Positions 2,203 through 61,700 of a stretch of DNA of 64,000 nucleotides are shown here, piece by piece. A program made the position numbers and the translations under genes. Origin of the DNA: Patescibacteria group bacterium (GTDB lineage Bacteria > Patescibacteriota > Patescibacteriia > UBA10025 > JAHIVO01); assembly GCA_049325535.1 (NCBI GenBank), contig JBMOKY010000001.1, forward strand, positions 749,942 to 813,941, read 5' to 3'. The notes under the pieces are model-generated. The model was not told the origin of the DNA, did not search any database, and worked only from the letters and a program-made list of their open reading frames with translations. The stretch's first letter is position 1, and each line of letters starts with the position of its first letter.

Positions 2203-2406
2203 ACATCCCTCCAGTGCAGAGTTAATAGGATACGATCGAACAATTGCCAATGAACGGTAAAACATAAAAGTCTATCCTAAAATTGCACTTATGTCAAGGG
2301 AAACTCCAGCGACACCCCGCTGGCACGCCATTTGACTACCATCTTTTTTCTATGGCAAGATTGGATTCATCCGGACTAATGTCCTTAACTGCGTTCGTTG
2401 AAGTAT

Positions 2407-3252
2407 ATGGTATCCCTAAAATTCTTATACAAAGTCACCCGCATAGAGCAGTGCCTCATCGTCAGTTTGAGCACCTGGCTTATTGCCCTGCTCTCGGACG
2501 GGCCGCTGTGGTTTAACCAGCCGAAAATAGCCGCTGGCGTCAGCATGTTTTTCAGTTGCCTCGGCGCCAGCCTCTACCACTACGGACGACGACATGACGT
2601 CTACGCCAAAAAATGGTATGACTTGGTGCTCGTCAACCGTCCGATGTTGCTCATCCTATCCGGAACAATTTCCTTCTGCTGTTCCATCGTCACCGCCGCC
2701 GCATTTCTACCCCCGTTTTGCACATGGATAGCGATTGCCAATTTCATGATTATCATGCTCTACGCGAATTTCCTGGATCAGTACTGGCCATTTAAAAACA
2801 TCGCTATCGCGCTCGTCTGTGTCACCCCGATCATCATGGGTTGGTATTCGGGTCACCGGCTGCACCCTATCGTTCCATTCCTTATCGCGGCAATATTCTG
2901 CGCCTATCTCGCCCGGGAAATCCTCAAGGATATCCAGGATCGCTCGGCAAACCACGGAAAACGATTTACCATGGTGATGTCAATCGGCATCACCGCTTCC
3001 CAGCGGATAGCAGCCGCACTGCTCAGTCTGGCCGCCCTATTTCTCATCGGCGGACTGGTACCACTCGTTGATTCTTCATCCATCGTGCTGACGATCATTG
3101 CCATCCCCTACCTCTGGGGCATTTTCCTGCTCTTCCGCTATGCCCGCTATCTCCTGGCTCCAGCGCCGATCGCCCATCAGTACCGAACCATTGATTTCGG
3201 CATGCTGGCGCTGATGATCTCAACGCTGGGTTTGCGCGTACTGCTGCATTAA
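2407..3252 (+). CDS. Polytopic membrane protein, possibly a divergent UbiA-family prenyltransferase
   Basis: 8-9 predicted TM helices. The motif KDIQDRSANHGKRFT resembles the second Asp-rich motif of UbiA prenyltransferases (DxxGD...G..T). The first NDxxDxxxD motif is not evident. The listed ORF starts at TTG 2398; the first ATG is 2407. Confidence 0.4.
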   Translation: MVSLKFLYKVTRIEQCLIVSLSTWLIALLSDGPLWFNQPKIAAGVSMFFSCLGASLYHYGRRHDVYAKKWYDLVLVNRPMLLILSGTISFCCSIVTAAAFLPPFCTWIAIANFMIIMLYANFLDQYWPFKNIAIALVCVTPIIMGWYSGHRLHPIVPFLIAAIFCAYLAREILKDIQDRSANHGKRFTMVMSIGITASQRIAAALLSLAALFLIGGLVPLVDSSSIVLTIIAIPYLWGIFLLFRYARYLLAPAPIAHQYRTIDFGMLALMISTLGLRVLLH

Positions 3253-10785: not shown

Positions 10786-10881
10786 TTACTGCTTCGTGGC
10801 ACTTTTGGGCGGATTGCCCGGCTTCGTGACGACGACCTTAGTCACCTTCTTGCCGTCCAAGACGGCTTTACACTTGCTCAT
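10786..10881 (-). CDS. 31-aa Lys-rich peptide MSKCKAVLDGKKVTKVVVTKPGNPPKSATKQ; candidate RiPP precursor/substrate, translationally coupled to the upstream radical-SAM gene
   Basis: ATG overlaps the TGA of the 10878..12353 gene (ATGA). A perfect AAGGAGGTGA SD lies 4-13 nt upstream. Terminator lies immediately downstream. The peptide is below the ORF-track size cutoff. Confidence 0.5.
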   Translation of the reverse strand: MSKCKAVLDGKKVTKVVVTKPGNPPKSATKQ

Positions 10882-12353
10882 GCCTTCACCTCCTTCAAAG
10901 AGCTGATGTTATTGTTCCCATCGGGGAACGTCGCGAGATCCTGTACCCTGCGGTACGTCTCGATTATTCGAGCATACAATTCCGGATTGATTCTGTCTAG
11001 TACCTGCAGCGCCCGACGCCGGAACTCATCGAGCATACCGGACCGCTCCAGGAAGCGAATGATCAGGCAATCGTGATGAATAGCCCAGATCAATTTCCCG
11101 TTGTCTTGCTCCTCAAACCCGATCGGATAGAGGCGGCAGGAAAAGGGGCGATCAGTATATACTCGGCACCGGCGCGGTTGCAGCGAACAAAGCTGGCTGC
11201 ACAGCGGTGACGGGACGGACACGTCGATGGATCCATCCGGCTTTTCCGGAAAAGAATGGATGTAATGGGCAGCATCGTTGACTGTAATGGTTTCGACGCC
11301 GCTTTCCTGCATCCGAGCCAATTCCTCGGGCATCAGCCAGACGTATCCCTGGCAGCATTTGTCCGTGCAGGTCCGGCATACCTCGGCAAACGGCGCGTAC
11401 AACGCGTCGAACGCCTGGTTGCATTCGTCCAATGATCGGATTTCCGGTTCCGGCGGGACCAGCGGACACCGAACCGGATGATTGACGATCAGTGTCACGT
11501 TCGGACTGGCCAGCACACGGTAGGAACACATGCTGTCCGCGCACCTGCCAACCAGATCGGTCTGTAACAGTTCATCCAGTGGCCGCTCCAGGATATGCCC
11601 CAGTGCGGCGCTGTGCGCGTGCTGCACCTGCTCACTGCAGAGGAACACCTGACCGTCAGAGCGCAGATATACAGCCGTACCGTCGGCCCAGCAACCGTCC
11701 GGTTCCCACGCAAGCGTTTCGCCGAAGTGTTCCTGCGCCGCACCGCTCACCCGGGTGACCAGTTCCTGACGCTGCACCTCAGACAGTCCGAGCCACGGCC
11801 AGAGCCGCGCCGCCCGTCCCGCCAGCGACACTTCGTTGATATGCAATCGCAGTCCGCGCTGATGCGCGTACGCAATGATATCATCAATGTCGCTCAGGGT
11901 CCGACGAATGACCGTCGTGTACACTGTCACCGGCACGCGATGAATGATTGCCCAATCGATCACTTTGACCACCTGGGAGTACGTCTGTCCGCCACGCACT
12001 GAATCATGCACCCGCGCCGTGGTCCCATCGAGACTGATTCCCATGGGTATATCGTACGACGCCAGGGTTCTGACATCCAATTCGGTTATCAGTGTGGCAT
12101 TGGTGATGACCGCTTGGGCGAGACCGATGGCGGCCGCTCGTTTCACTAGGGAAAAGAAATCCCGGCGTACGAACGGATCTCCTCCGGTCCAGCAGATGCG
12201 GCTCACGCCAGCAGCGAATAGGTGATCGATGACGGTATACGCTTCGACGGTCGTCAGCTCACCGACGCGGGGTAAACCGGAACACTGCACACAATGTGGG
12301 CAATGTAGATTACACCCATTGGTGACTTCCCAGTGGACATCACCTACCGGCAT
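10878..12353 (-). CDS. Radical SAM/SPASM-domain protein with C-terminal CxxCxxxCC (YkgJ/FliB-like, PF03692-type) domain
   Basis: CNLHCPHC (CxxxCxxC) radical-SAM motif and a SPASM/twitch-like Cys region (C…G.VFLC, GHILERPLDEL). The C-terminal CRTCTDKCC…C…C segment resembles the zinc/iron-chelating YkgJ/FliB domain. Start set at the ATG with a GGAGGTG SD (MPVGDVHW). Confidence 0.8.
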   Translation of the reverse strand: MPVGDVHWEVTNGCNLHCPHCVQCSGLPRVGELTTVEAYTVIDHLFAAGVSRICWTGGDPFVRRDFFSLVKRAAAIGLAQAVITNATLITELDVRTLASYDIPMGISLDGTTARVHDSVRGGQTYSQVVKVIDWAIIHRVPVTVYTTVIRRTLSDIDDIIAYAHQRGLRLHINEVSLAGRAARLWPWLGLSEVQRQELVTRVSGAAQEHFGETLAWEPDGCWADGTAVYLRSDGQVFLCSEQVQHAHSAALGHILERPLDELLQTDLVGRCADSMCSYRVLASPNVTLIVNHPVRCPLVPPEPEIRSLDECNQAFDALYAPFAEVCRTCTDKCCQGYVWLMPEELARMQESGVETITVNDAAHYIHSFPEKPDGSIDVSVPSPLCSQLCSLQPRRCRVYTDRPFSCRLYPIGFEEQDNGKLIWAIHHDCLIIRFLERSGMLDEFRRRALQVLDRINPELYARIIETYRRVQDLATFPDGNNNISSLKEVKA

Positions 12354-13695
12354 AGGCCACCTCCGATTCATCGAGCGCGCCTGCCAGAATAAACTGGGTC
12401 AGCGCGCAGCGAATCTCGAGTTCCGCGATGTCGGGAAACCGGGAAATAACCGATTGCTCGGTCGTAAGCCCCTCGTCGATGATGGCGCGCAGCACTTCCA
12501 GCGCGCCGTCGTTGAGGGTGACCGTCTGATACCGGGTCACCAGGAACTTTTCCGGATGACGGTCCAGTACCTTGGTATACCGATTGACGGTAAACTGCCG
12601 ATACGCATCGGGCACCTCAATCGACGGTTCCGGCCGTATCACGTTCGATACGTCGATGGGCGGTTTGGTCAGGCCGCGTACCGCATAATCGATGCAAAAT
12701 CGATCACTGCAGTTCGCGTCGACCTTACAACCACAGACGCATTCGCTCAGAAGCGGACATGAACGGCACGGTTCATCGACCCAGGACAGATCCCGAAAAA
12801 CACCCAGCGACCGTTTCCGCCAGATCACCTCGATCGGCTCGTCCAGCACATTGCCGAAGACCAGTTGGGACTGGTTGCACAGCCGGAAATCGCCCATCGG
12901 ATTGACCGCGCAAAACGTACTCCCGACGCCGCAATTGGACGTCATGCCCTCGCGCAGCAGCCGTTCATCGATGCAGTACGGTATAGCCGTGCCAAATCCG
13001 ACGCGGCCCCCGAGTGACGGAAAATCGTCACGAGCACGCAGCATCTGCGTCACTGCATCGCGAAACTGCTCCACGGTCGGTTTGAGCCGGGGGTCACTCG
13101 CGGAATGCTGGGCGCCGATACCGCCGTCCTCATACCGGTCGACGAATACCGACTCCATGCCGTGTTCCACGGCAACGCAGATGATATCGTAGATCTGGTG
13201 GGCATTGTACCCCGTCAAAACCGGGATGCACCGGACATCATGGCCGGCACCGACATAGTAATCGATCGAGCGAAGCGCCTGATCGAAACTACGCGGACGC
13301 TGGGTGATGAAATCATGGGCAGCCGCGGTCGCCCCGTGAATCGGAACGCCGAAACAGGCCAGACGGCAAGAAATGCCGCGCAGGGTGATGCGCCCATTGG
13401 TGACGATAGTCACCGACGAGTGGTCGCTCAAAAGCTCGATGTACTCATTGAGCTTGGCAACGCCCAGGAGACTCGGCTCACCGCCGATGAGATACACGTG
13501 CGGAATGTGGCTTGTGGACACTGACCGCACGATGCGATCGACCAGTTCCAGATTTGGCGGCTGGTCACGCAACGGATTGTAGCAGAAAATACAATCCGAA
13601 TTGCATTGGTACGTCAGCTCGATGTGGCACAGGTGCGGCACCGAATCATGCGGTACACACGCCAGTCCACATCCGGCGCAATTTTCTCTGTCCAT
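12340..13695 (-). CDS. Radical SAM/SPASM-domain protein with N-terminal extra Cys cluster and C-terminal PqqD-like (RiPP-recognition-element-like) segment
   Basis: CNSDCIFC radical-SAM motif and a full SPASM motif (CGVGSTFC…GNVLDEPIEVIW…CRSCPLLSECVCGC). A C-terminal segment of about 90 aa (LNDGALEVLRAIIDEGLTTEQ…) resembles PqqD/RRE. AGGAG SD before the ATG. Confidence 0.8.
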   Translation of the reverse strand: MDRENCAGCGLACVPHDSVPHLCHIELTYQCNSDCIFCYNPLRDQPPNLELVDRIVRSVSTSHIPHVYLIGGEPSLLGVAKLNEYIELLSDHSSVTIVTNGRITLRGISCRLACFGVPIHGATAAAHDFITQRPRSFDQALRSIDYYVGAGHDVRCIPVLTGYNAHQIYDIICVAVEHGMESVFVDRYEDGGIGAQHSASDPRLKPTVEQFRDAVTQMLRARDDFPSLGGRVGFGTAIPYCIDERLLREGMTSNCGVGSTFCAVNPMGDFRLCNQSQLVFGNVLDEPIEVIWRKRSLGVFRDLSWVDEPCRSCPLLSECVCGCKVDANCSDRFCIDYAVRGLTKPPIDVSNVIRPEPSIEVPDAYRQFTVNRYTKVLDRHPEKFLVTRYQTVTLNDGALEVLRAIIDEGLTTEQSVISRFPDIAELEIRCALTQFILAGALDESEVAYAGR

Positions 13696-13771
13696 GACGG
13701 ACTCCTTTCAGTATATCATCAAAAGTTTCATGTGCTCCAAAAAAGGAGGGGGCAGCGCTGTTTCCACACCG

Positions 13772-14080
13772 CTACCCCGTGACTCCGTGCGACGAGATAC
13801 GAATAATTTCGTCCATGTCGTCCTCCGGCGCGGCCTTGTTTTTTCGTACATGACCGCACGTTTGACAACGCTGGACGATAACGAAATCGCCGCGTTTTTG
13901 CTCGATCGAGATCGGCTCCATCATGCCGAGACACTCGGCCTGACGGTCACCCGGATTGACGTCGACATGCTTCGACCACAAACACTTCGGACAGTGGTTG
14001 GTATACCCCGTACCGACGACTTCATGGCCACAATGTTCGCACGTAAAATCCTCGATCGTGCGGGTGAATTGTTTGGTCAT
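13772..14080 (-). CDS. RNHCP-domain zinc-ribbon protein
   Basis: Literal TNHCPKC motif plus flanking CxxC pairs (CEHCGH…CPKC…CQTCGH). First gene of the radical-SAM operon. GGAGGT SD lies upstream. Confidence 0.65.
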   Translation of the reverse strand: MTKQFTRTIEDFTCEHCGHEVVGTGYTNHCPKCLWSKHVDVNPGDRQAECLGMMEPISIEQKRGDFVIVQRCQTCGHVRKNKAAPEDDMDEIIRISSHGVTG

Positions 14081-17748: not shown

Positions 17749-17810
17749 ATATCCGCACACCCCAAACCACGACTCCCGAGCATCTCGTCGGGAGTCTTTT
17801 TTTTACACGA

Positions 17811-18512
17811 CTAGACGATCCCTTTTGCCAGCGAGCCGACGATAAGCCCGATGGCCATGGCCACGCCGCCAAGTATCATGATGCGTAATCCCGCCTTGAC
17901 CCAGTTCACCTTGGTCAATTTGGTCGTCGCCGCGCCTAATCCAAATAACCCGATGAGTGTGATTCCGATCGAAATCGGCAATGCCTGCGCTACCCCGAGC
18001 AACAAATACGCTACCAAGGGGACCGTGCCACCGATGATATACGCGCCAAACATGTAAAACCCATTGCGCAGTGGCGCGGCGCGCATCGTGCCTGCAATAT
18101 TCAGCTCCCGATATGCCATCTCCTGAAGCATGAGGTGGCGATCCCCCGCTGCCGTTTCGGTCATCTGTCGCGCGAGGTGTGGCGGCCAGCCGTCACGGAT
18201 GAACATACGCTCCAGCTCATGCTGCTCCTCATGCGGATAGTCTTTTATTTCTTCCCGTTCCTCATGTAAATAGCGGTGGTGCAGCTCTGACTGCGAACGG
18301 TTCGATAAATACGAACCGACACCCATAGAGATCGACTCCACGGCAATGATCACCAACCCCGCCAATACGATCGTGAAATGATCCTGGCTACCAATAGCGA
18401 TACCGGTCACGGCTCCCAGTGTAGAAACCATGCCGTCCTCCATGCCAAATACAATCTCACGGAGTGATGCGCCGATCGCCTGAACGGATTGATGATTATA
18501 TTTCGTCATCAA
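17811..18512 (-). CDS. VIT1/CCC1-family iron/manganese transporter
   Basis: N-terminal REIVFGMEDGMVSTLG signature and a C-terminal 3-TM block typical of the VIT family. Confidence 0.8.
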   Translation of the reverse strand: MMTKYNHQSVQAIGASLREIVFGMEDGMVSTLGAVTGIAIGSQDHFTIVLAGLVIIAVESISMGVGSYLSNRSQSELHHRYLHEEREEIKDYPHEEQHELERMFIRDGWPPHLARQMTETAAGDRHLMLQEMAYRELNIAGTMRAAPLRNGFYMFGAYIIGGTVPLVAYLLLGVAQALPISIGITLIGLFGLGAATTKLTKVNWVKAGLRIMILGGVAMAIGLIVGSLAKGIV

Positions 18513-18519
18513 CGGTACA

Positions 18520-19317
18520 TCAAACTGGTCGGAGGGTGCCCGCCCAGACCTGCCATGCCAACAATGACTTGGCGACCAAGCTCAAGATGATATACGCGCG
18601 CTCTCCATACAGGTAATCCTGCCACTTTCCTGTTTTTTTGTACTGCAGCACCATGTTCAGTGCAAACACATTGAAAAAGAGGAAAATGGAAAAATATATC
18701 CAGTAAACAAACGTCGGTGCCTTCATGTCCCCTGATCCGGCAAAAAACAGATAGAACGCCACAGCCACCCAGGGCACGGCACCGGCGATGCACCCAAACA
18801 AATACGAGGTCCAATCTGTTTTTTGAGTCGCCTGATTGTGGAGCTCCATCATCCAGCCAAACAGGATCATCATGGCATTCAGAAAAAATATCAAAAGTAA
18901 ACTGATACCATCATACATGCCGACGAGCATGGCGATGACGATAATCATCAGTGACGAGCTAAACGAATACTCAATCCACCGCGCTTTATTGATTCCCTTG
19001 AGCAGATGACGGTTATACCAGCTATTGATTGCAGGCACCATCGATATTGCAGCATGAGCGATTGCCGAGAGAAATAAAAATCCTGCAACGAGCGGCCCGA
19101 TCGGGATTTCAAATATCGTCTTCAGTACTGGTTCGAGCTTCATTGACACAGAATTAAACTCGACAAAGGCGGTCGTCACGGGCAATGTGAATGACGAGCT
19201 GAAAACCAGCATGACCACACCCTGTATTGCATGCAGCAGAGCCATGATGACATTGAAACGGCGCAATCGGCGCAATTTGTCATCGGGCGTTACGGAAACG
19301 GGCGCATTGTTCTCCAT
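18520..19317 (-). CDS. Heliorhodopsin
   Basis: 7-TM protein of 265 aa with strong collinear similarity to heliorhodopsin 48C12 as recalled. TM3 has RWIEYSFSSSLM (counterion Glu). TM4-5 have MILFGWMME…FGCIAGAVPW. TM6-7 have VYWIYFSIFLFFN…QYKKTGKWQDYLYGERAYIILSLVAKSLLAWQ (retinal Schiff-base Lys in SLVAKS). The conserved His residues are present in TM1 and TM2. Confidence 0.85.
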   Translation of the reverse strand: MENNAPVSVTPDDKLRRLRRFNVIMALLHAIQGVVMLVFSSSFTLPVTTAFVEFNSVSMKLEPVLKTIFEIPIGPLVAGFLFLSAIAHAAISMVPAINSWYNRHLLKGINKARWIEYSFSSSLMIIVIAMLVGMYDGISLLLIFFLNAMMILFGWMMELHNQATQKTDWTSYLFGCIAGAVPWVAVAFYLFFAGSGDMKAPTFVYWIYFSIFLFFNVFALNMVLQYKKTGKWQDYLYGERAYIILSLVAKSLLAWQVWAGTLRPV

Positions 19318-19343
19318 ATGTGTTTGTCAGTTATTAAATATTA

Positions 19344-20102
19344 TCATTCAACCAATAAAGCACTCCAACCGCGATCATGTGAGCGGGCCGTGGCCGGCAG
19401 GGTGCCAACAAAATCCCCGTAGCCAGAATGGTACTCAAGCGTCTCAATCGAAAACCCTTCGATGCTGGCCATGCGCGTATTTATCTGATCCTCAAAAAAT
19501 CTCTCTATATCATCCAAATACTGATCCGGCACAGCAATTCGCCCAACCTTCGCGTCATGGATGATGAGATCAATGGATTTGGGTGATGTGGCGGTGACGC
19601 TTGCCTTGACATACCCGGGGGCTTGGATGTACTCATTCACCATTCCGGAAACCTCCATGCCGCCCTCAATCATATTCACTTGCACGTCGCTGAAAACCGG
19701 ATTATCCCCCTCAAATCGTTTTAACCATGCGGTAATCTCCTCTGAGGTACCACGCATATCAACTGCGATTTCACCATCAAACATATTTGCTACTGAATCC
19801 GTCCGTGTACCGGAAATCTGCAGGGGCACTTGTGCGTACAACGTTTCGAGATGCTTCGGGTCATTGCTGACTCCCAGGTCTATTGGTTGGTCGGTTTTGA
19901 ATATGCTGCTCAACACGGGTATGGTATAAAGTCCGGTGGCGGAAATGCCCAGCGCAATTCCCAGCACAATAACAGCGAAGACAATCAAGGTAATCAGCCA
20001 TCCTCGCCGTTTCTTCGGTTTTGCAATCGACGATTTTGCCTCTGGCGTGGGCGCGATATCGGCGGGCATGTCGGTCTTTACTTGTTTTTGCGTTTGTTCC
20101 AT
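19344..20102 (-). CDS. Membrane-anchored hypothetical protein (single TM, extracytoplasmic domain)
   Basis: ORF directly upstream of the heliorhodopsin gene, co-oriented with it. Start set at the internal ATG (MEQTQKQV). Confidence 0.45.
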   Translation of the reverse strand: MEQTQKQVKTDMPADIAPTPEAKSSIAKPKKRRGWLITLIVFAVIVLGIALGISATGLYTIPVLSSIFKTDQPIDLGVSNDPKHLETLYAQVPLQISGTRTDSVANMFDGEIAVDMRGTSEEITAWLKRFEGDNPVFSDVQVNMIEGGMEVSGMVNEYIQAPGYVKASVTATSPKSIDLIIHDAKVGRIAVPDQYLDDIERFFEDQINTRMASIEGFSIETLEYHSGYGDFVGTLPATARSHDRGWSALLVE

Positions 20103-20281
20103 ATGACAGATAATCATTAACAATATGTGCTCAGTATAGCATATTTTTATTTTCTGGAGCTGTGCTGCATATATCCTTTCCACATAATAGTAATCATTAC
20201 TAGCGCCAACTTGCCCAAAAATACTCAGTAACGGTACACTATATTGAAGCGTACCTCATGCCATAGGAAGGAGGTGAGAGC

Positions 20282-20443
20282 ATGACGACGGTACGTGGTC
20301 GGCCACTCTGGCTGGTGGTCATCAGATGGGTCATGATTGCATGCGCAATCATCATTGTCTGGTTTTCACCAAGTCTGGCGGTGGCATGTGCGCTCATTGG
20401 TATCGGGCTGCCGATGATACTGTCACCGAGTCGGAGACGGTGA
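20282..20443 (+). CDS. Small membrane protein (53 aa, two predicted TM helices)
   Basis: Perfect GGAAGGAGGTGA SD 5 nt upstream of ATG. Plausible -35/-10 upstream and a plus-strand terminator downstream (20470-20505). Not in the ORF track. Confidence 0.5.
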   Translation: MTTVRGRPLWLVVIRWVMIACAIIIVWFSPSLAVACALIGIGLPMILSPSRRR

Positions 20444-20469
20444 TATGGTTGGGAATTCGTGTAACGTGA

Positions 20470-20505
20470 CCCTGTGGAATGATAGCCACGGGGTTTCTTT
20501 TATTT
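20470..20505 (+). terminator. Plus-strand terminator (CCCTGTGG…CCACGGGG + TTTCTTTTATTT)
   Basis: Seen in sequence. Confidence 0.55.
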
Positions 20506-20537
20506 AAAAAAATCCTGGCAAGCAAGCGCTTGCCAGG
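20506..20537 (-). terminator. Minus-strand terminator (CCTGGCAAGC-aagc-GCTTGCCAGG + U7)
   Basis: Perfect 10 bp stem. Confidence 0.65.
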
Positions 20538-20563
20538 AAAAAAAACGGAAAACAGCTACGTGG

Positions 20564-50295: not shown

Positions 50296-50676
50296 TCACA
50301 TGCCAAGTGTTTCTCGAATACGTCCGATGATATCCGTGAGTTTGACTTTTTCTTTTTCCATCATCTCGCACTGGCCGGCATCAACTGCTTGCCGTACCCG
50401 AGGATCCTCGGCATAGTTGGTCAGGAGTATTACCGGAACCAGCGCCCCCCAGCTATCCTTGCGCAACCGGTCTAATACCTCAATCCCATGCATCTTTGGC
50501 ATCATAATATCGAGCAAAATCAAATCCGGTCGCTGCGCCAATGCCGCACCGAGGCCCTCTTCACCATTTTGCGCCTCATATACGGAAAAATTCTGCTTTT
50601 CCAGCTCCTGGCGCAGTACCTGACGAATAGGCAATTCATCTTCTATGATCAAAATTCGTTTTGATGGAGTCCCCAT
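50296..50676 (-). CDS. Single-domain response regulator (REC only), paralog A
   Basis: Acidic pair EDE, phospho-Asp in LILLDIMMP, and conserved T (VILLTN). Confidence 0.8.
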   Translation of the reverse strand: MGTPSKRILIIEDELPIRQVLRQELEKQNFSVYEAQNGEEGLGAALAQRPDLILLDIMMPKMHGIEVLDRLRKDSWGALVPVILLTNYAEDPRVRQAVDAGQCEMMEKEKVKLTDIIGRIRETLGM

Positions 50677-50699
50677 ACAGACGTAGTGTAGCGCGACCG

Positions 50700-51899
50700 C
50701 TATTTATCCGCAAGCGTGCGACCCCGGGGATTATTTTTTTCCATTTTCCGTGCCGCTGCCTGTTGCTCGTTTTTCAATACTACTTCTTTAAATTTGCGAA
50801 ATGAATAAGCCATCTCATCAAATGCCCGCGAAAGTTCCCCGATCTCGTCAGCATCCTTCGTTCCGACCATATATTCCAGATTTCCCTTGCGGATGATGTC
50901 CACCCCTTCTTTCAATTTCACGATTGGTCGGCTGATCCGGCGACCCAGCCAGAGCGATAAAAGATACACGATGACGATAACTATCAGCGAAACCACGGAA
51001 ATAAATCCCAACATAGCCCGGATGGGTTGGGTGGCCTCCTGGTCCTCAATCTCAGTCATCAGGCACCACTGAAGCCGCGGCACGTAATTATGGGTGCTGA
51101 GCACTCGGACATTCCGATAATTGTATATCCTGAATATTGGCTCAGCGTGATCCTCAATGATCCCTCCCTCGCCGGCGTATTCGCGCATATCTTTGAAACA
51201 ATCACGAGTACCCTCGGAATTGACAGTCTGCTTCAGCGCCGAGTCAGGATTGAATCGCGAGGGACTGACCATGACATTGCCCGCACCAACCAGATACGCC
51301 TCACCGGTTTCTCCCAATAAATTCGTATCGCTGACGATGTCATACAGCCGATCCGGGAGAAAAACAGCAACCATCACGCCGCTCGTTTGGCCTTCATGAC
51401 TGATTGGCACCGCAATGTGAAATGTATTTCGTCCGGACGTCTCCTCATAGAGGATATCGCCAATATGAGGCCGGACTGAACCAACGATAAATTCCTTCTC
51501 CAGTGCATAGTTCTGCTCAATCCGATCTGATACCGTCGCACCAACCACAAATCCCTCGGTATCCAGGATGTATACTTCGGATAATTCCTGGAATTGCTGC
51601 AACATATGGTTCCGTAGTAACTCAGATATGGCAGCAGAATCGCACGTCAGCCCCGCGTCGACTGGAGTCATACACTGCTGGATGGCGCTCCCACCGGCAA
51701 AATCAGCCACGCGGTCGACCGAAACATCGAGGTATGTATTGACCTCGTGGGCACGGCTATAGGCAATCGTTTTCAGATTGTCAAAAACCTGGGTTTTAAA
51801 ATTGAGGGCAGAAAACCAGTAAAAGGATATGGCAGCCAGCGCAGTCAGTAACACACCGGGAATAAGGTAAATAAGCGTAACGCGTGTCTTTATGGTCAT
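50700..51899 (-). CDS. Membrane sensor: TM - periplasmic Cache-like domain - TM - HAMP, with no kinase or other output domain
   Basis: Two TM helices bracket a roughly 270-aa extracytoplasmic domain. A HAMP-like amphipathic segment follows (ISRPIVKLKEGVDIIRKGNLEYMVGTKDADEIGELSRAFDEMAYSF), then only about 30 residues. Confidence 0.55.
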   Translation of the reverse strand: MTIKTRVTLIYLIPGVLLTALAAISFYWFSALNFKTQVFDNLKTIAYSRAHEVNTYLDVSVDRVADFAGGSAIQQCMTPVDAGLTCDSAAISELLRNHMLQQFQELSEVYILDTEGFVVGATVSDRIEQNYALEKEFIVGSVRPHIGDILYEETSGRNTFHIAVPISHEGQTSGVMVAVFLPDRLYDIVSDTNLLGETGEAYLVGAGNVMVSPSRFNPDSALKQTVNSEGTRDCFKDMREYAGEGGIIEDHAEPIFRIYNYRNVRVLSTHNYVPRLQWCLMTEIEDQEATQPIRAMLGFISVVSLIVIVIVYLLSLWLGRRISRPIVKLKEGVDIIRKGNLEYMVGTKDADEIGELSRAFDEMAYSFRKFKEVVLKNEQQAAARKMEKNNPRGRTLADK

Positions 51900-52276
51900 G
51901 CGATTTTTTCCCGTACAGCCTTAATAATATCTTCTAATTTAGTTTCCGCTTTACTGAGCAGCTGGGCCCGACCAGTCCGCACCGCGTCCTGAACCCGCGG
52001 GTCATCGGCCACATTGGTCAATAAAATGACGGGTACGTGCTTTCCCCAGGTATCCTCTTTCAGACGCTGCAGCATTTCCATGCCGTGCATTTTTGGCATC
52101 AATACATCGAGCAAAATTAATTGCGGTCGTTCCTGAAACGCAATCATTGTGGCCGTTTCACCATTATCCGCTTCCAGTACCCGCAAACCGGTTTTTTCCA
52201 GTTCACGTCGAATAATCCGACGGATTGGTTCTTCATCCTCTACCAGCAAGACAGTTTGCGGAGCAGCCATAGGCAT
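51896..52276 (-). CDS. Single-domain response regulator (REC only), paralog B
   Basis: REC motifs as in paralog A, to which it is very similar. 4-nt overlap with the sensor gene start. Confidence 0.8.
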   Translation of the reverse strand: MPMAAPQTVLLVEDEEPIRRIIRRELEKTGLRVLEADNGETATMIAFQERPQLILLDVLMPKMHGMEMLQRLKEDTWGKHVPVILLTNVADDPRVQDAVRTGRAQLLSKAETKLEDIIKAVREKIA

Positions 52277-55780: not shown

Positions 55781-58700
55781 TTAAAATAAGCTTCCGACAT
55801 TGCCCAACCAGGAGAAGGTAGCCTCAAGATTAGAAATAATCAACTGAAGGAACGACTCGCGCTCACGGGACGTCAGCACCGTGTGTGAATCCGATTTGGT
55901 CACGTTACCGGCCTTATCAGTCGACACCACCCGAAAATGATATGTTTTTGCCGGAGCGAGATTGGTCACTACCACCAAATGATCGAGTACGAGCTCGGCA
56001 TTCTCTTCTGTTTCATCGGTATAATCAGTACCACCCAACCCAACGCCATACTCTACCTTTGAAGTCGTGGCTTCATTTGTTTTCCAGGAAATGACGATTT
56101 GGATCTTTGAGGCATCCCCGGAACCGATCGTGTTTGACTCAGATGCGACGCCAAATATTTCCGGGGGGGTAGTGTCTTCCAGTGTAGTAAATTCCAATTC
56201 AGCGGATTCTGCCTGATACCCAAATTCGTCATTCCCCCTGACGATATATTTATACAGCGTGGCATCCTCCAGCCCGAAGAGTAGCACGGAATGATCGGTC
56301 TGTAGCGCGGCTGTTCCCTGCACCTTTGGAGCGATATTTTCATTGTAGTACTCCACTTCCGAGGTAGTGGGTACGTTTGTCTTCCATCGGATTTCAGTCT
56401 GCCCTTCGGCTTTATTTTCCGTAACCACATCGCTCACCTGAGGAAATGTCAGCGTCTGAAATGTGTAGTTGTCCGAGCTAATCGTATTGCCCGATTTATC
56501 CACGCCATTGATACGAAGATTGTACGTGGTACTGTCTGAAAGGTTTTCCAGCTTGACCGTATGAGTAAATGCAAATGAGCCGGACGTATCAGTATAAGTC
56601 AAGCCGTAATTGGTCGTGGTGCCGTACTCGATAACAGCCGTCGTCTCCTTGTTCGTTTCCCAGGAAATGATGGCATCAAACAGCCGGATATCCGACACCT
56701 CCAGATTGAGCACTCGCGGAGCCTCGAGAGTCGTAAATGACTGCACTGACGACAGGGCGACATTTTCATCCACGTCGATACTCTTCACTTGATAGTAATA
56801 TTTAGTCTGGGGTTTGAGGCCGGTGACTTTCACCGAGTGCGACTCGACCTGATCAGCGAGTCCCTGTTCAGTATCGAGCCCGCCCTCAGTCAGGCCGATC
56901 TCCACGAACGACGAAGCGATACGCTCAGTACGCCAGGTAATGGTCGCAGAATATGAATCGGCAACAGCAGTCGGCCCCTCGGTAATTTCCGGCGGCTGGG
57001 TGAAGCGGCCCTCTGGTTTCTCCGACACCACGTCGGTGGGGTCTGATGTAGCCGCGGCTTTGTCTTTGGCCGTAATCAGGTAAAAATACTCCTGCGTATT
57101 ATCGAGGCCGGTGTCGAGATACCCCGTCGAGGTGATGGTGGCGATATCTTCAAAGGTCTCATTATCCGTGGACCGGCTGATGGTATAGAATAATTCGTCA
57201 TCAGTGGTATACCCCTCCGGCGGATCCCAAGTGATGGTGATCGAGTAGCGCTTGGCGTCGCGATCCGACGAATCGGTGATGGTCACAGCCTGTGGCGGAC
57301 CCGGCGGGGTGGTGTGGGCTACAAATTCGACGGCGGCATAGTTATCATAGCTGAGGTTGCCGCCATCATCCACCGCCAAAACATAAAACGTATTCGTACC
57401 CTGCTGCGTAGCGGCATCAATCGGACCGACGCTCGTCGCTTCCGTGTACGTCACATTAGATTCATTCGGCAAATTATTGATGGAGTAATAATACCCCGCC
57501 ACCGTGACACCCTCATCCTGCGGCGCCTCCCATTCAAAAGTATAGCTATTAGTCGTATTGCTCAGTGGATCCACGGTCAGATTCAGCGGTGCCGATGGCG
57601 CGCCTTTGGTCAGGAACGTGAAATCGGTCGAATACCCAGTATTGCCGTCCTGATCCGTCCAACGCGTACGATAATGGTACTCGGTATCGGGCTGTAGATT
57701 AGTCAGAGTAACTTCGTGTTCATTGACCAGGTCGGGCGTGCCGGCTTCATTACCGTACGCCGTCGTCGTTCCATATTCCACGTAGGAAGACGCGTCGTGC
57801 TCGACGATATTACCGTACTGATCCTGATCATCCAGCGTCAACCATTCCACGATCGCCGAACGGATGAAGGGCGTGACAGTTGGCTGACCACTCATGAGTG
57901 GAGCAAATTTAAATTTACCCTCGGGTTTGATTTCCAAAACTGCTGAGTTACCCGACTGCACACCACCGGTACCGGCCGCGCGCGCAAAGTAGCTATAAGT
58001 GATATCAGTATCAAGGCTGGTATCCAAATATCCCAGGGTGTTGACCGTAGCAATCTTTGAATAATTCGCCGGCGGATCATCCACCGAATCAGGATTTTCA
58101 CAATCCGCTTCACAACGATATACATTGTACCCGGTCACTCCCGACCCGACATCAGCTGGTTCATCCCAGGTCAGCACCACGGAGTATTTTTGTGTGGCGC
58201 GATCGGACGTATCGGTCGCCGCGGCACTGGAAGGAACACCAGGCGCATTTGAAGAAAAATAGTAATTTTCCGATACGTAATTATCATAGTCAATATTATT
58301 GATCGCGTCAGCGGCGACGATGTAAATGGTGTTTTCTCCCTGCTGCGTGGCCGCAGAAAACGACAACAATGACCGTGAACTGGTTTGCGTACTGGTCGTC
58401 CAGCCGCCATCAGGCGACGGCGTGGCGCTGCCGGCCAAATTAATTCCGCATGTTTCCGCCGAAGGCAGCTCATTGATGGTATAGCAATAACGAAGTATAT
58501 CAGCTGAATCGCAATCCCCAGCTCCAGAACCGAGACACGTACTCGGCAAATCCCACGTCACGGTAAACGAATTGACGTCCTCCTGGGGACTGAGCGCGCT
58601 CGTCACCGGATCGATAACGATATTCTGCGGCGCTGAAGGTGCGTCGCCGGCATAGTAAAAAATTCTTTCCCGGCAGGTGACGGAAACATTATCAGCATTG

Positions 58701-61700
58701 TCCACCGAGTATACGCAAAATGAATTTTCTCGGGTCTGCGTGGCGAGCTCATCATTGACCGCGTTGGTCGGCACGCAGGTCTGCGCCCCTTCATTGATTG
58801 CATAACAATACTCCTTGATCCCCGAACCGCCGGTATCGGTCGCTACTGGCCATGAAAAATCAAAATTATTGACCGATGTCCAGCTGGCGGGCGTGGCCGT
58901 CACTGACGAAGGTCGCGACGGCGCAATGGTATCCAATTTATAGGTAAAAAGCGTGCCGCTCGAAACAGACGTATTATTATTTCGATCCTTCGTCCGGATG
59001 ATCAGATAGTATTCGTCAGACGTCAAAGCTGAAGCCGCCTGAGTGGTGACGTCCCATGATCCAGCCGATCCGTCAGGTGAGGCATAAAAATTCGTTCCGC
59101 CGACATAGGCGAGATTGGTTGGATCATCGGCATCGTCAATCGGATCTTTGGTATCGTCACTGCCAAAATATACGTAAAACCCGTCTATGCCGATACCGCC
59201 GGCATTATCAGCGGCAGACCAGTCGAAATACGGCGTTGTTTCATTTGTCCATGTATCATCGGCGATGCCGGTACCCATCCCACTATCAGTATAGCCAAGG
59301 ACCACCGCTGGATTGCTCGGCGCCGACAGGTCACTATAGTACGTCCAGCTGATATCATCGATCGACGGGGTGTACACTTGGTCGGAGGCAAAGCTGAGAC
59401 GCACCTGGCCGTACTGGGATACATCCGATTCCACTGAATAATATGTCGTGCCGCCGATCGTACGGACGTTCCCCGCCTCTTCCCATTCCCCGGGCGTGGT
59501 GCAACTAGCGTCATCACAGGTCCGCGTCTCTACCGCCAGCGAGGTATTGTCAGCTAATGTGCTGGTCACCGCCAGGGTGCCATACCCAAAAACACCTGCG
59601 GTGAAATCATTCACTTGCGATATCCATGATCCGTTTGCCTGGAAACCGGTCGATGCCGTCGAAACCACATACCGCTCCATGGCCGACGTGGACTCACCGC
59701 GAAAACCCAATATGATATTATTATCGGTCATCACCAAGGAACCGTATTCATAATACTGAAGCACGGTTCTCGTCGTCCACGAATCCCCCGACAAATCATA
59801 AACATACATTTCATCGGTATTATTACCCCGAGGCACCAGAATATTGCCCTGGCCATCCAGTACGCAGGCATCACCATAATACAAAGCAGCCGGCGCCAAC
59901 GCCATTGTTTCCCAAGTCAAACCCGGATTATCCGCCGGATCGGTATTAAACCGATATATATTCCTCGTATTATTACTTTGTACATAATACACATAATTAT
60001 CTCCACCGACAGAAGCGTACACCGCGCAAGAACCAAGATACGCTGCTGCGGTCAAGTTCGTACTCGTACCGATTTGTGTCCAGACATCATCAGTGATGTC
60101 ATATGAATAAAAGTACCGCGTGTTAGCACCCGTAATGAGGTATATCGTATCATTGCCGTCATACACCAAATCAGCGCCATAACCCGGTTCTGTAATATTT
60201 GCCGGCGCGCTTGTACGATGATTCAGTCGTGTCCATAAATCTGTTTTCGGATCATAGCGGTAAAAATACGCGATGTTATCCCCCAGGCCATCATCGCCAC
60301 TCAGCAAATATACTCCATCGAGCGCGTCAGTGGCATGATCAATATACTCCGCGTCAGCTCCGAATCGGACATAGTGCGGCACGCTGGCGCGCTTTTCCCA
60401 TCGCTCCAATTCCGGATAGTACGCATAGAAATCGGGGGTATTCAAACCGCGCGCCACAAACATCGCATCCTTCGTATCCTCAGCGTCATCATAAAAAGCC
60501 GTAGCGCCATAATAAAACCCTGCCCGGTTCAGGCCGGTTGGCAGTGCTTGCGTCCGCCAGCGGTTATCCGACACGTCATACGCCAATAAAGTGTATTCAG
60601 CCTCGCCACGCAGCACGTACAGCGTATCGGTTTCTTCGACATAGAACATGGAATTGGAGCTACCCAGGTATTTACTGGTCGGGATGTCAGCCAGGTATTC
60701 CCACTTATTTTGGGCGATGTCATAGCGCAGAAAATCGTTTGACACGTGACCCCGCAGCAGATAAATGTATCCGTCGATGTAATATGACGTCGCGCCATAC
60801 GATGTCCAGAGCGGAACGTTGTTGCCGTATGACCAGCTGCCACCTACTTCATATTTATAGAAATCGTTATCATTGTACCCCCGCGTCGCATACACACAGC
60901 CGCCGGCCGTTCCACAATAATCGCCATTGGGCACATAGGTCAGTGTGTGTCCATAGTACGCTGTTTGATCCATGTCAGGCACCGCCGGATCGCTCCAGAT
61001 ACCGGTGGAAATGGTATACTTCATGAAATAATATTGGGCGTTCCCGCTGGAAGCATAGATAGTGTCATTGCCGTCATACACTAGGCTGCCACCGTAACTC
61101 ACGATCTGCGAAACAGGATTCATCGTATCCCACGTTTTGGCGCTAATATTGTACCGCTTAAACGTCGTGCCATTGCCGGCCGTCGCAAATAAACATCCTG
61201 AGGCGTCTGTACAACCGAGGGTAACACCGTTGGGCACATACACCATAGCAGCACCACGGGTGACATTCACCGTCCCGTATGCCGTGTGTGTCTCGTCATA
61301 TGTTTTATTGGAAATAGAATACGCCCACAGGTTTTGCGAGTTATTGCCGCGTAATATAAATAATGTATCGTTGCCGTCGTAGGCGATGGTCGACCCGTCA
61401 TTGGCCGTAGTGGCAGATAGCTGCAGCGGTGTCGGAGCCTCATGCGTCCACACGCCATCGGCCACCGAGTCTAATTTCATGGTATCACCCGAATCGGCAT
61501 TGGTATTGATATTCGTTTCCGTGATTCCAACCGCCCCAAAATCCGCGCTGTCATCCCAGTCGACGGATGCCGACGGTGAAATGCCGCTGTACTCATAAGT
61601 AAATACCGTCTGCGCGGCAGCGACATTTCCCGCTTGATCTTTGGCGGCCACGCGCAAGTGGTAAATGCCCGAAGATATCTGATTGCCGTCCTTGTCTACC

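Follow-up and report, generated by a model that had tools for sequence, protein, structure and literature searches.

To our knowledge, the few heliorhodopsin (HeR) functions that have been solved were all reached through the operon neighbours of the gene. HeR binds or regulates operon-encoded glutamine synthetase (GS), photolyase and ABC transporter (PMC9529153, PMC9769723, PMC11109279). OcHeR up-regulates the OmrDE ABC transporter, and positively charged residues on the cytoplasmic side of HeR matter in partner binding; ten HeR neighbour groups have been listed, TerC among them (PMC11109279). A hypothesis of oxidative-stress mitigation, which has also been invoked for CPR bacteria (PMC9166423), was drawn from HeR gene context (PMC8612252). 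It has also been proposed that the inverted topology of HeR and its restriction to monoderms serve the acquisition of exogenous chromophore (10.1101/2025.11.27.691015).

The locus described here is a new variant of this theme of HeR with operon partners. It lies in a 64-kb window (the whole stretch of DNA that was analysed) from a Patescibacteria (CPR) MAG of ~1.15 Mb. As in the AbHeR-glutamine synthetase, TfHeR-photolyase and OcHeR-OmrDE systems, HeR stands tightly beside co-oriented genes, and as in OcHeR-OmrDE, one of the neighbours is a membrane transporter. In contrast to the ten published groups, the neighbours are a VIT1-family transporter, a probable TULIP-like extracytoplasmic protein (UNK) and, in relatives, the pyrimidine-dimer DNA glycosylase Pyr_excise; none of the three is found in the main text or supplements of that survey (PMC11109279), and no VIT1, pyrimidine dimer or LmeA entry beside HeR was found in the literature and supplements. 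The features of the locus are as follows.

20282..20443, plus strand: small hydrophobic ORF of 53 aa that diverges from UNK and has a strong Shine-Dalgarno, GGAGGTGA
20103..20281, minus strand: intergenic region between divergent genes; read from the sequence, it probably holds the promoter of the cluster
19344..20102, minus strand: UNK, 252 aa (NCBI call), type-II membrane-anchored, TM at about residues 33-56
18520..19317, minus strand: HeR, 265 aa, contains NKARWIEYSFSSS and GERAYIILSLVAKSLLAWQ
17811..18509, minus strand: VIT1/CCC1-family Fe2+/Mn2+ transporter, 232 aa, alternative TTG start at 18512
17771..17796, no strand assigned: GC-rich hairpin on which the VIT1 and inositol-monophosphatase genes converge

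The middle gene, judged by its sequence, is a true heliorhodopsin with all retinal-binding residues present. Residues 18-262 match the Pfam profile PF18761 over positions 1-242 of 242 (E=3.2e-99; 331.6 bits, with the cutoff at 26.7), and the best PDB match is TaHeR (6is6, E=1.8e-76). In the alignment to the 48C12-type chain 9ljj, H29, H88, E116 and K250 fall on H23, H80, E107 and K241, respectively; the 6su3 alignment covers the same residue range, and K250 is also aligned to the equivalent lysine of TaHeR. The two histidines, the counterion E116 and the Schiff-base K250 are unchanged in all 31 relatives compared. The Schiff-base motif, S246-L-V-A-K250 (SLVAK), is the commonest one in CPR HeRs (PMC9166423). 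The preliminary description had recognised HeR from its conserved Lys, Glu and His residues, and both the full-length profile match and the alignment to 48C12, with the TM7 lysine on the Schiff-base position, bear this out. NCBI lists a protein 100% identical to it under the name 'heliorhodopsin HeR' and already has HeR annotated in this MAG. HeR shares with TaHeR (6IS6) and 48C12 (6SU3) the full-length PF18761 domain, Schiff-base lysine, counterion glutamate, both histidines and SLVAK. It differs from them in being clustered with a probable TULIP-like protein and VIT1 and in being known here from sequence alone, and from TaHeR in being patescibacterial, with about half of the residues identical as estimated by eye. 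The residues at the columns of the proposed fenestration/carotenoid site are Y172/F215, C176/A219 and G179. The stretch KLRRLRR before TM1 is a positive-inside cue, which together with family homology makes up the only topology cues; this positive N-terminus is consistent with the inverted topology, in which the N-terminus would be cytoplasmic.

The sequence of the downstream gene identifies it as a VIT1/CCC1 Fe2+/Mn2+ transporter, as first described, with a match to PF01988 over 213 of 214 profile positions (E=1.4e-53) and a full-length alignment to EgVIT1 (6iu3, E=2e-22, residues 12-221). The alignment matches G-x-x-DG in TM1, ISMG-x-G-x-YL in TM2 and the Glu-rich cytoplasmic helices to those of EgVIT1 (6IU3); we take these motifs, from the EgVIT1 structure work, to be the transport pathway and the metal-binding domain. 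Within the VIT1/CCC1 family, this protein is set apart as a bacterial stand-alone form, without a ferritin-like domain, encoded directly after a rhodopsin gene. Many of the 834 homologues found are ~230-240 aa long, with 97-100% query coverage. The N-terminal codons (MTKYNHQ) are kept in the related locus L081, and in the sister species the start directly follows the HeR stop. Some assemblies call a 206-aa protein starting at M27, with GGAGGA upstream. This call would lose the conserved TM1 start, R-x-x-V-x-G-x-x-DG, and was rejected because the removed segment aligns with EgVIT1 and most homologues. A candidate internal promoter at the HeR/VIT1 junction (18523..18495) was also rejected: its TATAAT consists of the conserved VIT1 codons K-Y-N, and in L081 the -35 is not preserved.

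On the minus strand, the gene order is UNK (20102..19344), HeR (19317..18520) and VIT1 (18509..17811), and this co-orientation agrees with what had been reported. The UNK stop and the HeR ATG are separated by 26 nt, and the HeR stop is followed by VIT1 after 7 nt (TTG 18512) or 10 nt (conserved ATG 18509). Thus the near-contiguity stands, while the spacings given earlier, 27 and 8 nt, were off by one or two. The same three-gene arrangement is found in contigs of three independent sequencing runs, so that it is not an assembly artefact. DNA of the organism is present in runs such as SRR28264343, SRR12487018 and SRR8357215. A terminator scan found no terminator-like site on the minus strand between 20102 and 17811, also in line with the earlier reading. 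In the divergent intergenic region, an extended -10-like TGcTATACT (20141..20133) can be read ~30 nt upstream of the UNK ATG at 20102; it was omitted by the consensus promoter scan because no -35 hexamer matches. Terminator-like hairpins further upstream, at 20538..20513 (minus) and 20468..20495 (plus), close neighbouring genes. On the plus strand, the terminator scan finds the hairpin 17771..17796 to be terminator-like, with a 9-bp stem and a T8 tail; on the minus strand it lies ~15 nt after the VIT1 stop, where an A-run precedes it and only a weak T-run follows. From its sequence it is likely the end of the transcription unit, possibly on both strands ("bidirectional"). The 53-aa ORF is 72% identical in L081, and gene calls of 53-55 aa occur at the matching place in L081, L092, L097, L098 and L100; it is a conserved neighbour, probably outside the unit. 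Searching the entire window against Rfam with gathering thresholds gave no match, and thus no Mn or other riboswitch ahead of VIT1. Within the window, 64 kb of a ~1.15 Mb genome, the scanned subset of ORFs contains no Pfam domain of retinal or carotenoid biosynthesis, which agrees with the preliminary description.

In UNK, a K/R-rich N-terminus leads into a single hydrophobic helix (~33-56) and then an alpha/beta domain of ~190 aa. This layout fits the single-TM extracytoplasmic protein originally described, with the domain predicted to be outside and the N-terminus in the cytoplasm. In this respect it would differ from all characterised HeR partners, which are on the cytoplasmic side or in the membrane. 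A role as sensory-rhodopsin transducer was considered unlikely, the cytoplasmic part being a variable tail of ~32 residues without an output domain. UNK has no match in Pfam. Its predicted structure, of high confidence (pLDDT 89), resembles tubular lipid-binding proteins of bacteria and eukaryotes and is most like YceB and takeout-type lipid/carotenoid binders, suggesting that UNK is a probable TULIP-like lipid-binding protein. The bacterial TULIP-like lipid binders comprise YceB/DUF1439, DUF2140 and DUF2993/LmeA, of which DUF2140 is the YpmS-type, monoderm form with an N-terminal anchor (PMC6791001, PMC7643837). UNK falls within none of these three family profiles; when the UNK family alignment is compared with E. 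coli YceB by hhalign, no similarity emerges (probability 1.7%), and the family profile gives only chance matches to PDB sequences. Weak LmeA matches are seen in only 4 of 71 UNK relatives (best E=1.1e-5), and Pfam scans of 20 distant relatives give only one DUF2140 match (19.6 bits, cutoff 34.3) and one TamB match, both below threshold.

The explanation that we prefer, tentatively and a little short of calling it probable, takes UNK, HeR and VIT1 as one probable three-gene transcription unit. By analogy with characterised cases, HeR would be a slow-cycling, non-pumping photoreceptor, expressed with its operon neighbours and possibly binding them. The variable cargo genes would serve photoprotection, either by repair of UV lesions or, as here, by export of cytoplasmic Fe2+/Mn2+, through which VIT1 would limit light-driven Fenton chemistry. 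UNK would face outward from the single membrane, on the side that exposes the long extracellular loop of HeR, and from its modelled fold would most likely handle a hydrophobic ligand for or with HeR. VIT1 would be a recent, lineage-specific recruit, co-transcribed but not a defining partner of HeR, and may be translationally coupled to it, given the gap of 3-10 nt and the lack of a Shine-Dalgarno of its own.

The position after HeR is a variable slot, occupied by VIT1 in this lineage only, by the pyrimidine-dimer DNA glycosylase in several relatives, and empty in others. Pyr_excise (PF03013) starts 0-12 nt after HeR in L002, L003, L004, L040 and L083 and 83-500 nt after it in L032, L029 and L017, and it is placed divergently upstream of HeR in L019. 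Other contents are an IMPase (window), a 94-aa ORF (L081), a 190-aa reverse gene (L097) and the latter with a ferritin-family gene, two genes downstream of HeR (L098). This suggests a photoprotection cluster with variable cargo, the dimer-repair enzyme of the relatives being a functional parallel to TfHeR-photolyase. VIT1 itself is missing within 6 kb of HeR at all 80 related loci of GTDB species representatives. The linkage is limited to the lineage of the window and one sister species (L081/L092/L093), in which the whole region is syntenic and the junction is kept although the proteins of the two species are only 62-83% identical. The syntenic relatives L097 and L098 have UNK-HeR with VIT1 absent from the slot. 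The L097 genome carries VIT1 on a separate contig (L090), in a flavodoxin/Cu-oxidase context, and the closest VIT1 homologues in other CPR genomes are likewise found in flavodoxin/copper contexts. Since VIT1 is present in one lineage and its sister and missing in other relatives, the linkage is recent and lineage-specific; on this sequence comparison it is compatible with a photoprotective add-on and is not evidence for a conserved HeR-metal module. As a recurrent partner of the kind seen in HeR-partner operons, VIT1 scores 0 of 80 loci, against four contexts for UNK. The 'light-linked metal-homeostasis module' of the preliminary description therefore largely fails the check proposed with it, conservation of the linkage in relatives.

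These observations also favour an incidental adjacency, in which a compact genome gained VIT1 in a rearrangement-prone slot flanked by HeR and a zincin gene, and VIT1 is an ordinary Fe2+/Mn2+ exporter, constitutive or metal-regulated, with no tie to light or HeR. The absence from related loci, the differing slot content among syntenic relatives, the separate contig in L097, the metal/redox contexts of the closest homologues and the missing VIT1 class in published surveys can all be counted for it. However, the junction is very tight, without a Shine-Dalgarno or a conserved promoter for VIT1, and it has persisted through the divergence of two species; whatever its origin, VIT1 is now, from its sequence context, most likely expressed with HeR. 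For the alternative cargo of the slot, a CPD glycosylase, the link to light damage is obvious. TerC, one of the listed neighbour groups, has been associated with Mn export. We regard incidental adjacency as a substantial possibility that still falls somewhat below an even chance.

Across relatives, it is the pair of UNK and HeR that is kept. The two genes adjoin in either order and in four genomic contexts that have no further gene in common:

Context A: window, L081, L097, L098
Context B: L001, L003, L004, L083, with the pair split by 2.5 kb in L002
Context C: L005, L009, order reversed
Context D: L029

Flanking synteny with the window is wholly lost outside lineage A. Among 87 HeR loci, a set that includes targeted look-ups, clustering of close co-oriented neighbours gives UNK 10 members, Pyr_excise 6, VIT1 4 and any other cluster at most 2. 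With a broad HMM of the UNK family, no distant member turned up near the remaining HeR loci, and the window showed no paralogue. The membrane-anchored unknown, first treated as a bystander, is thus the neighbour that stays with HeR, in a single patescibacterial clade. It may instead be a general envelope or lipid-scavenging protein of a lipid-auxotrophic CPR bacterium, whose place beside HeR was inherited from the common ancestor of a single clade and has no HeR-specific function. The UNK family, with 786 representatives at E<=1e-3, far exceeds the HeR-linked subset, close orthologues are also found away from HeR, and the linked cases are all among the HeRs nearest to that of the window (67-80% identity). 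Against such a general role are the persistence of the pair in contexts without other common genes, the loss of synteny around it, its rank as the largest neighbour cluster and the two testable unlinked cases, where HeR is present in the genome all the same (L085/L018 sharing a contig, L096/L017 sharing a SAG). We consider a purely general role of UNK unlikely, though it deserves to be kept in view.

A bolder form of the ligand-handling role would make UNK a dedicated extracellular capture-and-delivery factor that hands exogenous retinal, xanthophyll or both to HeR, with the downstream slot (CPD glycosylase, VIT1) as the photoprotective output; we judge this distinctly improbable as it stands. 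Less probable still, and hardly to be expected, is direct light gating, in which HeR would bind VIT1 in the membrane and modulate Fe2+/Mn2+ export on illumination, by analogy with OcHeR-OmrDE: one membrane transporter encoded in a HeR operon is already known to be modulated by HeR (PMC11109279), probable translational coupling would favour co-insertion at equal stoichiometry, and the Glu-rich cytoplasmic helices of VIT1 are on the side of the positively charged loops of HeR, but the pairing is not conserved beyond one narrow lineage and no specialised interface is evident, because the HeR is 70-80% identical to HeRs without a VIT1 neighbour.

The HeR-VIT1 link, emphasised in the preliminary description, is lineage-specific and should not be generalised to a light-metal module at this stage. 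With this locus, three candidates not included in the published classes that were examined join the HeR neighbours, and through Pyr_excise in the relatives the tie of HeR to photolyase is widened to a second UV-repair enzyme, unrelated to the first. If the delivery role were true, UNK would supply the missing 'delivery' step of the exogenous-chromophore proposal (10.1101/2025.11.27.691015), and these bacteria, on this view unable to make isoprenoid chromophores, would obtain theirs from the host cell or the environment. UNK is a testable candidate for rhodopsin loading in chromophore-auxotrophic, host-dependent bacteria, or for the first extracellular partner of HeR.

The cluster lies on the reverse strand of the window and comprises the following genes.

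Genes of the heliorhodopsin cluster
20102..19344 (-): UNK, single-TM membrane-anchored protein, 252 aa (ORF listing and translation)
19317..18520 (-): HeR, heliorhodopsin, 265 aa (PF18761)
18509/18512..17811 (-): VIT1, VIT1/CCC1-family Fe2+/Mn2+ transporter, 232/233 aa (PF01988)

ORF listing, Pfam and alignment to PDB sequences bear out the preliminary description of three co-oriented, nearly contiguous genes. The gaps of 26 nt (UNK/HeR) and 7-10 nt (HeR/VIT1) agree with the reported spacings to within one or two nucleotides, and a consensus scan of the minus strand found no terminator inside the cluster, as had been claimed. Directly after VIT1 there is a GC-rich hairpin (17771-17796), common to a convergent inositol monophosphatase gene. 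The longest UNK ORF begins at GTG 20183; the ATG at 20102 is backed by NCBI and by homologues. The gene order is repeated in contigs of three independent sequencing runs. Divergent from UNK, a 53-aa hydrophobic ORF (20282-20443, +) is preceded by GGAGGTGA, a strong ribosome-binding site, is followed by a terminator-like hairpin of its own (20468-20495) and matches no family; it is conserved in place in L081, where identity is 72%, and L092, L097 and L098 have gene calls of 53-55 aa there (L numbers are our handles for related loci or contigs from other genomes).

HeR matches the Pfam heliorhodopsin family over its full length (PF18761, E=3.2e-99) and aligns end to end, among PDB sequences, with TaHeR (6is6, E=1.8e-76) and 48C12-type chains. 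Residues H29, H88, E116 and K250 align with 48C12 H23, H80, E107 (counterion) and K241 (Schiff base), which confirms all the Lys, Glu and His positions originally singled out, and none of the four varies across 31 HeR relatives. A 100% identical protein in an NCBI Patescibacteria MAG (1.15 Mb contig) carries the annotation 'heliorhodopsin HeR'. HeR is an already annotated, ordinary member of its family, and VIT1 is an ordinary member of its own (PF01988, E=1.4e-53).

These identities and the anatomy stand, but the proposed HeR-VIT1 module is not conserved, which leaves the earlier interpretation partly supported. From an alignment of the 31 HeRs, one genome per GTDB species was scanned, yielding 80 loci (flanks of up to 6 kb on each side) with HeRs 61-80% identical to the window HeR; in none of them was VIT1 found beside HeR by tblastn with the window proteins, even at E<=0.01. 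Targeted look-ups added a single further lineage with the UNK-HeR-VIT1 triad, represented by the Kerfeldbacteria-like L081 (= L092/L093), where the region is wholly syntenic with the window (ATP synthase, S9 hydrolase, a 150-170-aa ORF, a small reverse ORF and a zincin). In L097 and L098, also syntenic, UNK-HeR is followed by a reverse-strand gene and VIT1 is missing. In the L097 genome (GCA_964419765.1) a different contig carries the VIT1 orthologue (67% identical), where a flavodoxin and a 164-aa ORF precede it and a multicopper oxidase is close by; a related contig repeats this context, there with a Cu-ATPase. Because VIT1 is absent from all 80 loci, the triad is confined to L081 outside the window, and VIT1 lies elsewhere in the L097 genome, the HeR-VIT1 junction is derived and specific to one narrow lineage, and the adjacency may have come about incidentally or as a recent addition.

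Within the window/L081 lineage the junction is tight, and the VIT1 start codon is conserved together with the codons right after it; a promoter-like match overlapping the junction is not conserved. VIT1 is therefore most probably co-transcribed with HeR; it is perhaps also translationally coupled to it. Public gene calls differ in the VIT1 start: some assemblies have a 232-aa product, others one of 206 aa that begins at M27 behind GGAGGA. The shorter form is disfavoured, as the conserved N-terminus and the DG motif of TM1 point to the long form. L098, a syntenic locus lacking VIT1, has a ferritin-family gene (PF00210, 140 aa; L098:6411-6833) two genes downstream of HeR, so that the variable slot carries a gene for iron handling here too, perhaps by coincidence. 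In the window, a putative carbonic anhydrase gene (Pro_CA_2, PF20393; 22985-23422, -) directly follows the ATP synthase epsilon gene; it keeps this position in L097 and L098 and is missing from L081.

Genes close to HeR and co-oriented with it were clustered across 87 HeR loci, those from targeted look-ups included. No more than three families exceeded two members, namely UNK with 10, a 110-aa protein with 6 and VIT1 with 4 (from two species); the other 109 neighbours were singletons. UNK adjoins HeR in four contexts that have no other gene in common.

Contexts in which UNK adjoins HeR
Context A: window, L081, L097, L098
Context B: L001, L003, L004, L083; in L002 the pair is 2.5 kb apart
Context C: L005, L009 (order HeR then UNK)
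Context D: L029

UNK orthologues also occur away from HeR (L082, L085, L086, L096, L099). HeR is still in the same genome in both testable cases of this kind: L085 (UNK) and L018 (HeR) share a contig at a distance of 110 kb, and the same single-cell genome contains L096 (UNK) and L017 (HeR). Near the remaining HeR loci, a broad family HMM picked up no more distant UNK-family members. Shared descent may explain part of the UNK-HeR linkage, since all UNK-linked HeRs fall among those most similar to the window HeR. In lineage B, the gene before UNK invariably encodes a secreted, lipoprotein-like protein of ~170-200 aa (L001:4523-5056, L002:8393-8905, L003:4478-5080, L004:4528-5073), and it travels with UNK in L002, where the two are apart from HeR.

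Pfam identifies the 110-aa neighbour, which the window lacks, as a pyrimidine-dimer DNA glycosylase (Pyr_excise, PF03013, E about 1e-27). It joins photolyase, already published, as the second enzyme for repair of UV lesions with a link to HeR.

Pyr_excise genes by position relative to HeR
0-12 nt downstream: L002:6811-7146, L003:6802-7134, L004:6799-7131, L083:6669-7007, L040:2859-3188
83-500 nt downstream: L032:6879-7202, L017:7275-7595, L029:6012-6332
Divergent, upstream: L019:4398-4724 (reverse strand)

At its N-terminus UNK has a tail rich in K/R, followed by a single hydrophobic helix (about residues 33-56) and a ~190-aa domain expected on the outside. Its homologues number 13 by word-based search and 786 representatives by exhaustive profile search (E<=1e-3). 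Among 71 family members scanned one by one, weak Pfam matches were four to LmeA (DUF2993; best E=1.1e-5), one to DUF2140 and one to TamB. YceB, DUF2140 and DUF2993 are bacterial families of tubular lipid-binding (TULIP) proteins, described by Levine (PMC6791001), and LmeA is a phospholipid binder (PMC7643837). UNK is called TULIP-like by its predicted fold; because the window protein has no Pfam match and hhalign against YceB was negative, it is filed under no named family at the sequence level.

Characterised HeRs, except some viral ones, do not pump ions; they bind and regulate proteins of the same operon. Such partners include glutamine synthetase (PMC9529153), photolyase (PMC9769723) and an ABC exporter (PMC11109279), and gene context led to the proposal that HeR mitigates light-induced oxidative stress in monoderms (PMC8612252), later extended to CPR (PMC9166423). 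For the present cluster, every statement on function is inferred. The best-supported reading is a UNK-HeR pair that persists across relatives, with a variable, photoprotection-flavoured slot downstream of HeR in which VIT1 is the cargo of the window's lineage. Export of Fe2+/Mn2+ when light raises ROS would be a sensible rationale for VIT1. Direct gating of VIT1 by HeR is possible by analogy with OcHeR-OmrDE, but the comparative data lend it no support. In the persistent pair, UNK would handle a hydrophobic molecule at the outer leaflet, because its extracellular location and lipid-binder-like fold point there.

A 2025 preprint (10.1101/2025.11.27.691015) argues that >90% of HeRs carry a fenestration/carotenoid-binding site, with an aromatic residue at 162/206, a small residue at 166/210 and Gly169, and proposes that these proteins acquire exogenous xanthophylls from the cell exterior. 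Mapped by hand from the PDB-sequence alignment, the window HeR has Y172/F215, C176/A219 and G179 at these columns, and a 48C12-type chain has F162, C166, G169, F206 and A210. Among the window ORFs scanned (part of 64 kb), no domain for making retinal or carotenoids, blh/crt-type included, was found, in line with the earlier remark that this 64 kb of the genome shows no retinal-biosynthesis gene. The outer-leaflet UNK, the site residues and the lack of such domains in the scanned ORFs make supply of retinal or xanthophyll to HeR by UNK an attractive, unproven idea, which we consider rather improbable.

The only isoprenoid-related enzyme among the scanned ORFs is a UbiA-family prenyltransferase (2398-3252, +; E=5e-10). 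Elsewhere in the window, two adjacent radical-SAM/SPASM proteins (10878-14080, -; 497 and 451 aa, the first also with a CxxCxxCC domain), adjoined upstream on the same strand by a 102-aa Cys-rich protein, look like a peptide-modification (RiPP-type) cluster. At 50296-52276 (-), a 399-aa dCache_1+HAMP membrane protein, with no kinase or other output domain by Pfam, lies between two single-domain response-regulator-like proteins. A very large ORF (55781-64000, -; at least 2739 aa) continues past the window end.

The ten published groups of HeR neighbours are GS, NAD+ synthetase, photolyase, MerR, TerC, ABC transporter, SDR, alpha/beta hydrolase, DUF2177 and DUF2238 (PMC11109279). Two findings have no counterpart in the searchable literature and supplements: that a TULIP-like extracytoplasmic protein repeatedly accompanies the HeRs of one Patescibacterial subclade, and that VIT1 was recruited beside HeR in a single lineage. 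The recurrent HeR-Pyr_excise junction is likewise absent from the searchable HeR literature and supplements. The locus is a variant of the same kind as the known systems of HeR plus operon partner, and UNK, listed in the preliminary description as a membrane-anchored unknown, is a more interesting lead than VIT1.
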